A stretch of DNA of 63,847 nt, the filler included, from Folioceros fuciformis (Eukaryota): assembly GCA_049999805.1 (NCBI GenBank). It is 3 parts of 2 records of this genome, joined end to end, with 100 filler letters (N's around TTAATTAATTAA, not from the genome) between each part and the next. Parts side by side here need not be neighbours in the genome. Positions count along the whole stretch, not along the records: positions 1 to 20,664 come from JBNGIO010006101.1; 2 more parts are not named here. One strand, 5' to 3'. This document shows positions 6,448 to 10,600 of this stretch, one piece after another (within the stretch, counting starts at the first letter, position 1; each line of letters opens with the position of its first letter). A program made the position numbers and the translations under genes. Below the pieces are notes generated by a model. It ran no database searches, was not told where the DNA came from, and worked only from the letters and a program-made list of their open reading frames with translations.

Positions 6448-7516
6448 ATGGCTAAGCGCCAAAGGATGCAAATACGAGAGGTTTCTCCTAATCCCCCGCC
6501 TCAACAACTCGAGGAAAATCAAGGCAAGGAGATGCCGCCTACCGACTCAGCAGGACCATCCGGAGACAAATCTGAAGATTGGAAGACACAGATGATGGTA
6601 GCTTTACGACAAATTCTCCCCGAAGTATTGCCGGAAGTTCTCCAAGATTTGACAGCATCTGGGAAAAAGGCAAGGAAGGATCCACAGCCTATAGCTCTAC
6701 AAAATGAGGAAGCGGAAGACAATCAGGATCCTTTTCATATCTTCGAAGCAGTTCCGAGGGCAAATCTGAAGTTGACCGTGCCAGATAAGTATGAGGGAGT
6801 AAGGGATCTACAAGCTATTGATTCCTGGATTTACTCTATTAAAAGCTATCTTGCTTCATATGGCTTGGAGCCTAAGCATTACTTAGGAATTGTGAGCAAC
6901 TTTCTCAAAGGGTATGCTTTGGTGTGGTGGCGAAGTTATTGTGCTAATGTAGCCCAGGGAAATCGAGCACACACCATCACAGACTGGGCATCTTTTAAAG
7001 AGGCCTTGAAGAAGCAGTTCCAACCTGCGAATGCTTTACACTTGAGCCGGCAGCTGCTTGATAATATAAAGCAGACAGGTATTGTACGAGAATATTCCAA
7101 TGACCTTGGCAGAGGCTATAATAGCAGCAGATGCTATCCCAGATACCTTTCATTCCAACACATCCAACTCCTTAAGAAGATTTTGAGGTAATACCCGTGG
7201 ACGGTATATGCAAACTAGGGTTTCTTCCAATAATGTTGCAAGAGGGACTCCCAAGGATAATGAAAGGAGTACAGTTGCAAGAGGCAACTCCAGTGCGAGC
7301 TTCCGTGGGAGAAATCGAGGAGTGCGCAGGGGGCGCGGACCTCAGAGAACAGTGACAATGGGTTCTCGGAAAGGAGTTTGTTTTACTTGTGGAGAGCCGG
7401 GACATTACGCAAATGAATGCCCCAATACTCAACAAACTTTGAATGTTGTTCAAGACAACCCACAGCCCCAAAGACTCAGGATTACAGAAGTATCCGGATC
7501 TGAAAATCCCAAATGA
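6448..7516 (+). pseudogene. gag: Retrotransposon gag, disrupted (frameshift near 7100, in-frame TGA at 7184), with CCHC zinc knuckle
   Basis: PDKYEG..IDSW..FLKGYALVWW..W..FKEALKKQF gag motifs; CFTCGEPGHYANEC in a second frame. Confidence 0.85.
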
Positions 7517-7603
7517 CGGGATTGGCCACATGTTGCACAGGCTACATGTGGTGACTCTCAAGATACTGAGAACAGCATTATTCACAGGGCAGGTGGAGAG
7601 CTC

Positions 7604-10600
7604 ATGTATATAGAAGGATGTGTGAATCGTGAAGAAGCGAAGATGTTGCTTGATCTAGCAGCAACACATAATTTCATTTCTCCTGGCAGAGCAAGTAAGC
7701 TTGGTTTGACATGGGCTAGTATTTCAGAGCCATGTACAGTGAAACAAGCAAAAGGAAAGCTGCAGTTCTTAGGACAGCTAGAAAAAGTTCCTTTGCAGAT
7801 AGGCAATTGGACAGGACAAGCAAGCTTCACAGTTGTAGGTATGGATGATCATGAAATCATCTTGGGCTTAGAATGGATGAAGGCCAATAAGGTATGTGTA
7901 GACGTGGACTCACGCACCATACAGATCGTAGGAGATGAAAAGCACAAAGTGAGTTGTGCAGTTCTTGAGCATCAGCTTGGGCACAAGATTGATGAAGTCA
8001 TCTCTAACAAAGAGCTCAAGCGTTGTGTTAAAAATGGAGAGGAACTCTATTTGTTGGTGTTGCAAGGACTAGAAGATGGTCTTGAGATGGAATCTCAGAA
8101 GCAACCAAAGATTCCAAAGGAGATACAGGATGTCTTAGATGAGTTTAAAGACTTGATGCCTACTGAATTACCTCCTTTACCTCAACGGAGAGTTGTAGAT
8201 CATAAAATTGATCTAAAGCCAGGAAGTGTACCGTCATCAAGAGCGCCATATAGATTGTCGCTAGATGAGCTTCAAGAATTGAAGAGACAAATGTCTAACT
8301 TGTTAGCCAAGGGCTATGTTAGAGTCTCAAAATCCCCATTTGGTGCGCCAGTATTGTTTACGCGAAAGAAGAATGGAGGATTAAGGTTATGCTTGGATTA
8401 CAGAGCACTCAACCAGATAACAATCAAAAATTCCTATCCTTTGCCAAGGATGGATAATATGTTTGACAGGTTGAAAGGTGCTAAGTATTTTACCAGACTG
8501 GATTTGATGGCTGGTTATTACCAGATTCGCATCGCAGAAGGACATGAATACAAAACTGCTTGTAGGACAAGGTATGGATCTTTTGAATTTCTAGTCATGC
8601 CATTTGGACTCACTAATGCACCAGCCACATTTCAGACTCTCATGAATAGTATATTCAGAGATCTGTTGGATGAGTGTGTTGTGATCTATTTGAATGACAT
8701 TTTGATATTCAGTTCTACCTTAGAGGAGCATGTCCAACACTTGAGGAAAGTGTTGGAAAGGTTAAGGGCAAATTCTTTGTTCTTAGCTATAACAAAGTGT
8801 GACTTTGTTAAGGAAGAAATAGACTTCCTTGGATTCATTGTCTCTGCTGATGGAATCAGGATGGATCCTGATAAGGTAAAAGCCATACAGAGTTGGCTGC
8901 CGCCAAGCAATGTGCATGAAGTGCGTATGTTTTTAGGATTGGCTAGCGTGTACAGAAGATTTGTACCAATGTTTGCCAAAATTGCTGCCCCATTAACTGA
9001 TCTCTTGAAGAAGGTGAAGACATGGAAGTGGGATGAAGAATGTCAAAGGGCATTCGAGTTTCTCAAGTTGAAACTCAGCACTACCCCAATATTAGCAATC
9101 TATGATCCAAAGAAATATATAGAAGTGTATACTGATGCGTCAGATACAGCTATTGGAAGAGTGCTTATGCAAGAAGGTAGGCCAGTGGCTTACAAATCAA
9201 GAAAGTTGTATGAACATGAGAGGAAATACCCCACATATGAGAAGGAGATGACAGCCGTCATCAATTGTCTCAAGATTTGGAGACACTATCTTCTTGGAAG
9301 ATCTTTTGTGCTGTACACAGATAATGTAAGTACAAGTTTCTTTTCTAATCAGCTGCGACTAAATGCTAGACAAGCTAGATGGCAAGATTTCCTAGCGATG
9401 TATGATGTGGAGATCAAGTACAAGCCAGGGAAGGAAAATCTCGTGGCAGATGCTCTTAGTCGCAAGCAGGAGTTGAGTTTAATGTCTGCTTTTAAGCTGA
9501 AGAATCCTAAGCTAGCTACAACACAGATGATGATTGAGCCAAGGAACACTCACACGCAGATTAAGGAGGCTTATTTGCATGATCCATTAGTGCAAGATTG
9601 GATCAACGAGATAGAGCTACCGGGGTCTAAGTTTAAGCTTAGAAATGGCTTGTTAATGTTCAAGCAAAACAGGATTGTGATTCCTGATTCTCAAGAGTTG
9701 AGAAAAAAGTTGCTTGCAGAATGTCACGATGTGCTAAGTGCTGGTCATCGGGGAATTGACACAACTTATGAGAAGTTGAAGAAGCTGTTTTACTGGCCTG
9801 GAATGTACAAACATACTGTAGAGTATGTGAAGTCTTGTGTAGACTGTCAGCAGGATAAAGTAGAGCAGACAAATCCACGAGGTTTGTTGCAACCCCTGCC
9901 TATTCCAAGTGGGCCTTGGAAGAGTATATCAATGGATTTTGTTATGCCATTGCCACCCAGTAATGGATACACAGCTATCATGACAGTTGTTGATAGGTTC
10001 AGCAAGCAAGCACACTTTATCCCCACGAAGAAGCAAGTGAAGGCTTTAGAAGTTGCTCAATTGTTTAAGAAGCATATCTATGTGTTACATGGATTGCCTA
10101 TGCAAATTGTGAGTGATAGAGATCTCAGATTCACAGCGGAACTTTGGCAACAGCTTATGAAGAGCTTGGGAGTGCAACTATGTCTAAGTACAGCATATCA
10201 CCCTGATACAGATGGATCTACAGAAAGAGTAAACAGAATCCAAGAGGAATACTTACGACACTATGTACAAATGGACCAGAGGAACTGGAGTAATCATCTT
10301 GAGGATGCAGAGTTTTGTTATAACAATACTGTACATAGCTCCACAGGCTATACACCTTTTCAGATGACAAGTAACGAAGCAATGGACGCAGTTTCCATGT
10401 TGAATGCTGACGTGTTTGAGACAGCAGCAAGAGAACCACGTGAATTTATTGAGCAGTTAAGTGCCAGGCATGAAATTGCTAAGAGGATTTTGGCCAAAGC
10501 TCAAGACAGGCAAAAGAAGTTTGCTAATAGGCACAGGAAAGAGGCAGAATTTCAAGTGGGTGACAAGGTTTGGGTAAAGGTGAAACACTTCCCAGTACCT

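Follow-up and report, generated by a model that had tools for sequence, protein, structure and literature searches.

A small Ty3/gypsy lineage in the genome of Folioceros fuciformis carries an in-frame UGA between gag and pol, and programmed readthrough of this codon, resembling the UGA-CG signal of tobraviruses, probably makes its Pol protein. We analysed a window of 63,847 nucleotides (filler included; assembly GCA_049999805.1) that holds one copy of the element, hereafter the window copy. Its family is termed A and a sister family in the same genome B; the junctions of 27 family A and 24 family B copies were aligned, giving 51 junctions.

Element structure and state of the window copy

The domain order gag-PR-RT-RH-IN in a Pfam scan, together with paired LTRs, target site duplication (TSD), primer-binding site and polypurine tract, identified a Ty3/gypsy LTR retrotransposon with the following features:

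6418..6429, + strand: primer-binding site, which we take from its motif to be of tRNA-Met type; an LTR lies directly upstream in other copies, the 5' LTR being absent from the window copy
6448..7516, + strand: gag with capsid-like domain, Arg/Gly-rich region and CCHC knuckle, defective (Pfam, copy comparison)
6912..6917, + strand: donor-like GTATGC in phase 2, relevant to splicing only; seen in 10 of the 11 A copies and 12 of the 16 B copies for which the site was located
7376..7426, + strand: CCHC zinc knuckle (Pfam PF00098)
7514..7516, + strand: in-frame UGA at the gag/pol boundary; 27 of 27 A junctions, and 20 TGA plus 2 TAA in 24 B junctions
7517..7524, + strand: 8-nt spacer with CG as first letters; sequence differs between A and B, length constant
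7517..10981, + strand: pol with protease, RT, RNase H, integrase and SH3 (Pfam, ORF)
7525..7552, + strand: hairpin 1, 9-bp stem, loop of 10 nt (A) or 7 nt (B); paired cells 238 of 243 (A) and 211 of 216 (B)
7553..7561, + strand: 9-nt linker, in most copies with GAGUC as its first letters, but with GACUC in the window copy and its nearest kin (junction alignment)
7562..7579, + strand: hairpin 2, 7 bp, AGGA loop in most copies; paired cells 171 of 189 (A) and 160 of 168 (B)
7585..7587, + strand: acceptor-like YAG in phase 2, relevant to splicing only; YAG-G in 24 of 27 A and 15 of 24 B
7604..7606, + strand: first in-frame AUG 3' of the stop, located where the protease begins; found in most copies of A and B
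11000..11011, + strand: polypurine tract
11012..11507, + strand: 3' LTR, truncated; 589 bp at full length elsewhere, with ends AGT...ACT (copy comparison)

The window copy is defective. Its gag (Retrotrans_gag, E 6.9e-10; zf-CCHC, E 3.5e-8) lacks 116 nt at 7095/7096 in comparison with other copies, which shifts the gag frame, and its pol catalytic motifs look altered (DLAA, YLND). The second in-frame TGA that had been reported at 7184 is real (7184-7186) and reflects CpG decay, 14 CGA and 3 TGA being found among 21 covering copies. Two further copies, L071 and L072, retain 589-bp paired LTRs and 5-bp TSDs. In both families the LTR termini are AGT...ACT and not the TG...CA usual in plants.

The junction stop codon is shared by both families

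The zinc-knuckle frame of gag closes at TGA 7514-7516, and the reading frame then stays open for 1154 codons, through PR-RT-RH-IN, to 10981. This bears out the earlier note, which had claimed a knuckle frame continuing in frame into pol, and which had also correctly placed the CGG, the 8-nt spacer at 7517-7524 and the stem at 7525-7552. TGA occupied the junction codon in 47 of the 51 pooled junctions, while neither CGA nor TGG was found there in any junction of A or B. The only two junctions without a stop (L095 and L101) are each locally deleted or heavily decayed. At three control CGA codons, TGA was seen in 3 of 21, 2 of 24 and 1 of 21 copies, compared with 27 of 27 at the junction in A. 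The earlier note had named CGA or TGG in young intact copies as grounds for refutation; this did not occur, and the 27 A copies with TGA include one whose two 589-bp LTRs differ at only 2 sites. Decay from CGA, offered previously as a real alternative, fails on this uniformity in A and on the sharing of the stop with the sister family. As judged from the aligned copies, the junction stop is inherited, and decay is rejected as its origin.

Directly 3' of the stop position, CG stands in 40 of 51 junctions and TG in 7; the post-stop codon is CGG in family A, turned into TGG in 5 of 27 junctions, and CGC in family B. UGA-CGG had been put forward as a leaky context to be sought across copies; its UGA-CG part is conserved, but the third letter of the following codon is not. 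G at position +9 was present in 26 of 27 A and 22 of 24 B junctions.

The proteases of A and B are 53-58% identical, with synonymous sites near saturation, and comparison of RT with three B copies gave dN of 0.08-0.10 and dS of 1.8-3.4. Within family A, pN/pS was 0.22 for variants present in at least 3 copies (26 nonsynonymous, 32 synonymous) and 0.67 for private variants. These substitution patterns indicate that pol is held under purifying selection in both families.

Two hairpins follow the stop codon

Hairpin 1 appeared alike in the MFE and centroid folds of the window copy, with a mean pair probability of 0.99; the junction fold of this copy had a z of -2.55, and 4 of 200 shuffles were equally stable. 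Each arm contains the palindrome ACAUGU together with an AUG that is out of frame. Family B has the same 8-nt spacer length and hairpin 1 stem and a different loop, and since the loops differ by 3 nt the reading frame is preserved; an inner 2-bp GC/GC extension is confined to family A. The lengths of the 8-nt spacer and of the 9-nt linker are identical in the two families. Between the commonest A and the commonest B form the 7 codons across hairpin 1 are identical, the comparison figure for the protease being 0.35-0.45 identical codons per conserved residue, and identity over its 30 nt was 23/30, lower than in the best gag/protease windows (25-27/30). No two-sided change in hairpin 1 occurred among the 27 A and 24 B junctions, so covariation gives no proof of its pairing. 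The compensatory changes anticipated for this stem thus did not appear, although the stem itself is conserved; they sit in hairpin 2.

In hairpin 2 (7562-7579), which the earlier note did not contain, 4 of 7 pairs are altered on both sides between A and B, all of them deriving from one family split. In 3 of 4 pairwise comparisons over about 3.9 kb, it alone among the 7-bp hairpins common to both families had two or more two-sided changes; in the comparison against L084 it was not recovered. The window copy has a damaged version with one mismatch and an AGAA loop, and its mean pair probability is 0.58, against 0.90-0.98 for 7 further copies. Of the 27 A copies, 8 have pair 5 disrupted. The distance from the stop to the first letter of hairpin 2 is 46 nt in A and 43 nt in B. 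The folding signal of family B is weaker (z -1.9 to -3.8), and in the B copy L080 the junction fell outside the best 6 of 63 folding windows. An Rfam search gave no match at the junction, and no pseudoknot partner for the hairpin loops was obvious by eye, the computed folds being nested only.

The junction resembles known readthrough signals

We propose that in this lineage gag is programmed to end at the TGA. Most ribosomes would terminate at the UGA and yield Gag; in a minority, a near-cognate tRNA would decode it, producing Gag-Pol and thereby keeping Pol scarce. The leaky context would consist of UGA-CG and a stem that begins 9 nt past the stop and faces the ribosomal mRNA entry channel, and hairpin 2, 9 nt past hairpin 1, probably assists. 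The residue inserted may be Trp, Cys or Arg, as in other cases of UGA readthrough. The readthrough origin of Pol suggested earlier gains support from the recurrence of stop, spacer and stem in the sister family; we infer that the stop is bypassed by readthrough and that the hairpins stimulate it.

The closest likeness is to the type II motif of Virgaviridae, stop-CGx-xxx-xxG followed by a stem after an 8-nt spacer (passages of Firth et al. 2011, PMC3159437). According to these passages, the replicase signals of tobra-, peclu-, furo- and pomoviruses and those of alphaviruses share with our junction the UGA-CGG/CGC, the G at +9 and the 8-nt-spaced stem. However, the viral type II signals described there have a long-range stem of 12 or more bp spanning 138 nt, whereas two compact hairpins within about 65 nt are found here, and the Virgaviridae motif has an A before the stop, which is not conserved here (15 of 27 A and 3 of 24 B). 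The type II signal is known from RNA viruses, while the host here is an endogenous retroelement. The UGA-CGG context of tobacco rattle virus gave 9% readthrough in leaves (passages of PMC2754532). The MLV gag-pol junction likewise combines gag-stop-pol, an 8-nt spacer and a 3' structure, but it uses UAG-G and a compact pseudoknot (passages of PMC3159437), compared with UGA-C and no pseudoknot seen by eye here. The tobravirus/alphavirus type II signal fits better than the MLV-type model also named in the earlier note.

A gag-stop-pol layout as such is already known from Tj1, Tca2 and algal Chlamyvir, which limits the surprise. Tj1, Tcry1 and Tosmo1-3 of fission yeasts are Ty3/gypsy elements of chromovirus type with a single in-frame TGA-C between gag and pol, and Tj1 transposition requires its stop (passages of PMC4600332 and bioRxiv 2022.12.06.519325). 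In the same passages this group has GAA-TGA-CT and is self-primed, in contrast to TGA-CG and tRNA priming here, and no downstream hairpin is cited, whereas we find two. Tca2 of Candida albicans has gag-UGA-pol and a predicted 3' structure as here but is a Copia element, and its junction alone failed to direct readthrough in yeast (PMC2194720). Among green-plant gypsy elements, Chlamyvir and a minority of Tekay and Athila are tabulated as GAG:s:PROT, one stop separating gag from protease (Neumann et al. 2019, PMC6317226 Additional file 5); this likeness is one of tabulated layout alone, no context, structure or mechanism being given there (PMC6317226). The statement that readthrough is uncommon in plant gypsy elements was only partly right, as REXdb assigns the single-stop layout to 80% of the Chlamyvir elements scored, with 10% for Tekay and 12% for Athila. 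Our literature search found no paper that treats the A/B lineage or describes such a structured signal for readthrough in any chromovirus-like element of land plants; PMC3605345 and PMC4608283, which it returned, do not bear on the question. According to a 2009 paper, every experimentally verified plant readthrough case was viral, with rice gypsy elements only as candidates (passages of PMC2754532).

Alternative explanations for the junction

Readthrough may be real and depend on the UGA-C context only, the hairpins serving dimerisation or packaging through their ACAUGU palindromes and having no part in it. This explanation overlaps with the one we prefer, sharing the readthrough step, and is unlikely in our judgement. 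Conservation of hairpin 1 in sequence without covariation is as for a sequence-specific signal, and the start of hairpin 2 at 46 nt (43 nt in B) exceeds the usual entry-channel position. However, the 8-nt length is constant despite the change in spacer sequence, and it equals the tobravirus and MLV distance (passages of PMC3159437).

Alternatively, Pol could be made from a spliced RNA in which the phase-2 donor at 6912 is joined to the phase-2 acceptor at 7585-7587, giving an in-frame short-Gag-Pol. The excised part would comprise the stop, both hairpins and the greater part of gag, and the hairpins would regulate splicing or packaging. The two sites match in position and phase between A and B, but both fall within codons that are conserved (G/E-Y-A; Arg), and protein constraint could therefore account for them. 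The 116-nt piece absent from the window copy is GT-AG-bounded, hence the element RNA is probably spliced at times, and Ogre elements remove their inter-ORF region by splicing (passages of PMC6317226). Nevertheless, breakpoint mapping found the precise 6912-7587 deletion in none of 52 loci mapped to the family A reference; the ends of a large, filler-containing deletion in L111 do not coincide with the donor- and acceptor-like sites. One contig of run X1 (depth about 5; its RNA status is a guess) crosses the junction, matching it with 0 differences and showing no joint there or in gag, runs X2 and X3 matched short RT pieces only, and a search of RNA datasets for the element listed no carrier. 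As splicing also leaves UGA-CG, the constant 8-nt spacer and the preserved frame unexplained, we regard it as improbable. Another acceptor candidate, CAG at +24 in the hairpin 1 loop (phase 0), was rejected, being found in A only and missing from the B loop.

Separate translation of Pol from AUG 7604, through reinitiation, ribosome entry at an internal site or a minor promoter within the element, would make the hairpins initiation or promoter elements and seems to us similarly improbable. In its favour are the presence of this in-frame AUG in most copies of both families and the stem-arm words CACATG/CATGTG, which we assume to be E-box-like. Yet Met also stands at the protease start in 28 of 50 single-ORF relatives and need not be a start codon; out-of-frame AUGs lie upstream of AUG 7604 in 4 of 4 copies examined; and the 28-29 codons from stop to AUG are in frame and open in 22 of 27 A and 18 of 24 B. 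A minor promoter lies within the Tca2 junction (PMC2194720), but the two-sided changes in hairpin 2 favour RNA pairing over a DNA motif. Finally, CGA/TGG nonsense decay propagated by non-autonomous copying could draw on the active CpG decay (TGA 7184, post-stop TGG) and the defective window copy, but is scarcely credible given the 51 junctions free of CGA and TGG, the stop shared by the sister family and the strong purifying selection on pol across the near-saturated A/B split.

Relatives and distribution of the lineage

In an RT tree built without a clade-labelled reference, A and B formed one clade (100/100), and its sister group (90/92) includes seed-plant single-ORF elements. The nearest named full-length relatives are seed-plant single-ORF chromoviruses, 46-49% identical over PR-RT, which by their motifs are presumably Galadriel-like. 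In these relatives Gag and Pol are fused, 40 of the 50 with a protease motif having more than 200 aa ahead of it within one ORF. LTR size, 5-bp TSD and type of primer-binding site agree with the Galadriel row of PMC6317226 Additional file 5. Galadriel has a single gag-pol ORF in 74% of scored elements (PMC6317226), while A and B are split by the stop; the LTR ends AGT...ACT also differ from the seed-plant elements. A more distant gypsy group in the same genome does not share the junction stop: 9 of its 15 protease-matching loci are open from knuckle to protease by eye; 5 of the 20 loci gave no protease match.

The exact junction pattern had 0 matches in metagenomes, and a PR-RT query gave no confirmed locus in metagenome and viral contigs. 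A leader plus protease query retained 0 of 306 candidates, and a knuckle-to-protease query returned distant or repeat-driven matches only. Close relatives are known as two families of one genome, none being found elsewhere in the searches made. Five Selaginella families described in passages of PMC3350952 were considered, and none fits by LTR length, ends or ORF layout.

It is possible, though we hold this tentatively, that a land-plant lineage derived from single-ORF elements evolved, independently of RNA viruses, a tobravirus-like UGA-CG switch with a two-hairpin stimulator in which hairpin 2 is functional. On that reading, the junction would represent a structure-dependent readthrough signal endogenous to a plant genome, borne by a family whose AGT...ACT LTR ends would escape standard TG...CA searches. 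At about 70 nt the junction is short, and it occurs naturally in two divergent forms, with a built-in compensatory set and many variants. It lends itself to asking if UGA readthrough stimulated by RNA structure takes place when plant ribosomes translate endogenous RNA, and if the signal geometry common to retroelements and RNA viruses arose by convergence. For annotators, a 'premature' stop in such elements should not be taken for decay.

Most of the seed-plant relatives bear a chromodomain, whereas the last 73 aa of the window copy, when scanned, gave no Pfam chromodomain match at E up to 10. By eye, the pol tail of this copy resembles a decayed chromodomain.

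The window copy and its junction

The element at window positions 6418-11507 is a Ty3/gypsy LTR retrotransposon belonging to family A, one of two sister families (A and B) in this genome, and comprises the following features.

6418, PBS
from 6448, gag
7517-10981, pol (PR, RT, RH, IN, SH3)
11000, PPT
11012-11507, partial 3' LTR

This copy is defective: the 5' LTR is absent, gag has a 116-nt loss and a frameshift, protease and RT motifs are altered, and a decay stop lies at 7184. An earlier note had proposed a UGA-CGG readthrough signal at the gag-pol junction stop (TGA 7514-7516), and its description of the junction is exact in the window sequence. 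The 116 nt of coding gag absent at 7095/7096 have the ends GTAAGT and TAG and a branch-point-like CTAAC; the donor GTAAGT was found in 13 of 15 copies and the acceptor TAG in all 18 located, and the loss itself in the window copy only. The loss is exactly what copying of a spliced RNA would leave; deletion at a 3-nt microhomology plus one substitution would account for it too, and deletions of that type are frequent in other copies. In place of the 5' LTR, 6372-6414 is 77% like 11623-11665 just beyond the truncated 3' LTR, which hints at insertion-site rearrangement.

The junction stop is inherited in both families

DNA search of the genome (87 Mb, 7240 contigs) gave at least 36 matches, and 30 loci were retrieved. 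Family B was revealed by a protease search (50-59% identity), and 40 more loci were picked for it from protease, RT and DNA matches. The 70 loci yielded 51 junctions, with 20 duplicates and 20 distant-group loci left out; these junctions are not 51 independent events (L006/L021 and L016/L023 may be alleles or tandem copies), and since the stem served as search anchor, copies that lost it are missing from the count. Also outside the count are L043 (TGA-CGC kept, stem shortened), L039 (junction deleted) and L103 (TGA read on the reverse strand).

All 27 family A junctions carry TGA. The 24 family B junctions comprise 20 with TGA, two with TAA and two without a stop, of which L095 is locally deleted and L101 heavily decayed. 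At three control CGA codons of family A, TGA occurred in 3/21, 2/24 and 1/21 copies, and at seven control TGG codons in at most two copies each. The CGA or TGG that decay of this codon would predict in young copies was not seen, TGA being present even in a copy whose 589-bp LTRs differ at 2 sites. The junction is a real, inherited recoding candidate. L094, L049/L086 and L103 form a B-type subfamily with family A pre-stop codons (CCC AAA) and B hairpins, possibly an intermediate.

Two hairpins follow the stop

In both families the stop is followed by an 8-nt spacer beginning CG, a 9-bp hairpin 1 (window 7525-7552), a 9-nt linker and a 7-bp hairpin 2 with the loop AGGA (7562-7579 in the window copy, where it has one mismatch and the loop AGAA). 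The spacer sequence is unlike between the families (CGGGATTG vs CGCCAGGG), and the hairpin 1 loop has 10 or 7 nt, so that the frame is kept. Conservation of the stem, which the earlier note proposed to test, was found, the hairpin 1 stem being identical in A and B, with no compensatory change. Seven codons over hairpin 1 are identical between families, compared with 0.35-0.45 identical codons per conserved residue in protease; rough post hoc arithmetic gives about 0.004 for this identity.

Hairpin 2 differs between A and B in sequence and encoded peptide while its pairing is kept: both partners differ in four pairs and a single partner in one, L050 has one additional two-sided change, and pair 5 is broken in 8/27 A copies. 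When the A-B alignment (~3.9 kb; 27,000-29,000 placements per pair) was scanned in four comparisons, five or six 7-bp hairpins were shared, and in three of the four hairpin 2 alone among these had more than one two-sided change, a covariation reflecting a single family split. By folding, the 70-nt junction segment was the best of 63 in A, with z -4.2, and was not among the best six of 63 in B copy L080; the z values of three A copies lay between -3.1 and -6.2, those of five B copies between -1.9 and -3.8.

At the linker (window 7553-7557 and homologues) most copies of both families have a strong donor-like word, GGTGAGT, 34-37 nt past the stop; the window copy and those closest to it have GGTGACT. 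As a donor it could give rise to a gag-only RNA.

Selection on pol and bypass of the stop

We compared five A with nine B copies. Protease identity was 53-58%, with synonymous sites saturated in 45/45 pairs. In RT, where five of the nine B copies are out of frame and uninformative, three B copies showed 83-88% identity to A (dN 0.08-0.10, dS 1.8-3.4) and one further copy 78-79% (dN 0.15). Across 25 A loci, L021 and L023 being left out, protease-RT variants in at least three copies had pN/pS 0.22 (26 N, 32 S) and private ones 0.67. Because the A-B dN/dS in RT and the within-A pN/pS place pol under selection beyond a fixed stop, these sequence comparisons indicate that pol was long expressed and that some bypass must exist.

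We consider readthrough the probable route. The junction has the layout of the Virgaviridae motif, in which stop-CGx-xxx-xxG precedes a stem that starts after 8 nt, and potato mop-top virus has CGC after the stop, as family B does (PMC3159437); the motif's A before the stop is not matched here. In leaves, 9% readthrough was measured for the UGA-CGG context of tobacco rattle virus (PMC2754532). It is very unlikely that Pol comes instead from an RNA spliced from donor-like 6912 to acceptor-like 7585-7587: this joint would keep the frame in A and in B, but both sites lie within conserved codons, the corresponding deletion occurred in 0/52 mapped loci and, as a weak further point, one contig of run X1 spans the junction unchanged. 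Two points speak against a separate start at AUG 7604: out-of-frame AUGs lie upstream, and Met is frequent at this position in single-ORF relatives (28/50). Junctions of such kind can mislead, as in Tca2 (PMC2194720).

Relatives and known layouts

Among 120 proteins listed, 50 had the protease motif, and in 40 of these the ORF continues upstream of it for >200 residues. In a midpoint-drawn RT tree of 62 rows, none labelled Chlamyvir or Galadriel, A + B formed a clade (100/100), sister to a group including pine and angiosperm elements (90/92, under the starred threshold). This placement and the mostly single-ORF relatives suggest that the stop may have arisen within the A + B lineage. Searches with a junction pattern in metagenomes, with PR-RT in metagenome and viral contigs, and with leader+protease and knuckle-to-protease queries found no close relatives beyond this genome. 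Four metagenome proteins (P0100, P0101, P0110, P0112; 1112-1281 aa), with RT 57-61% like the window element, start shortly before protease without gag; their elements may split gag from pol too.

The gag-stop-pol layout is already known from fission-yeast chromoviruses (PMC4600332 and bioRxiv 2022.12.06.519325) and Tca2 (PMC2194720), and rice RIRE2 is a candidate (PMC2754532). REXdb tables assign it to 16 Chlamyvir (80%), 28 Tekay (10%) and 35 Athila elements (12%), with Galadriel mostly single-ORF (PMC6317226). In the literature within reach, which excluded most subscription papers, neither the A + B lineage nor any type II signal built of two hairpins in a land-plant element came up.

LTR ends and neighbourhood

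LTRs of both families begin AGT and end ACT rather than TG...CA (L071:245-833 and 5417-6005; L072; family B L079, L083 and L084; window 11012), and L071 and L072 are flanked by 5-bp target duplications. A-starting LTR ends are known in insect gypsy elements. In a lotus survey, Copia non-canonical end types all begin with T (PMC9804982). The AGT...ACT ends may be the reason the family was overlooked.

The window further contains:

2170-2270, minus strand, full-length U6 snRNA match to Rfam RF00026 (104.8 bits), a gene or pseudogene
4753-6021, minus strand, ABC-transporter-like gene exons lying ~400 bp from the 5' end of the retrotransposon (weak per-exon Pfam matches, E 0.06-0.29)
14752-15069, 17003-17631, 19591-19950, 22945-23786, 27073-28000, 42890-43279 and 46559-46683, tandem-repeat arrays with 32-129 nt units
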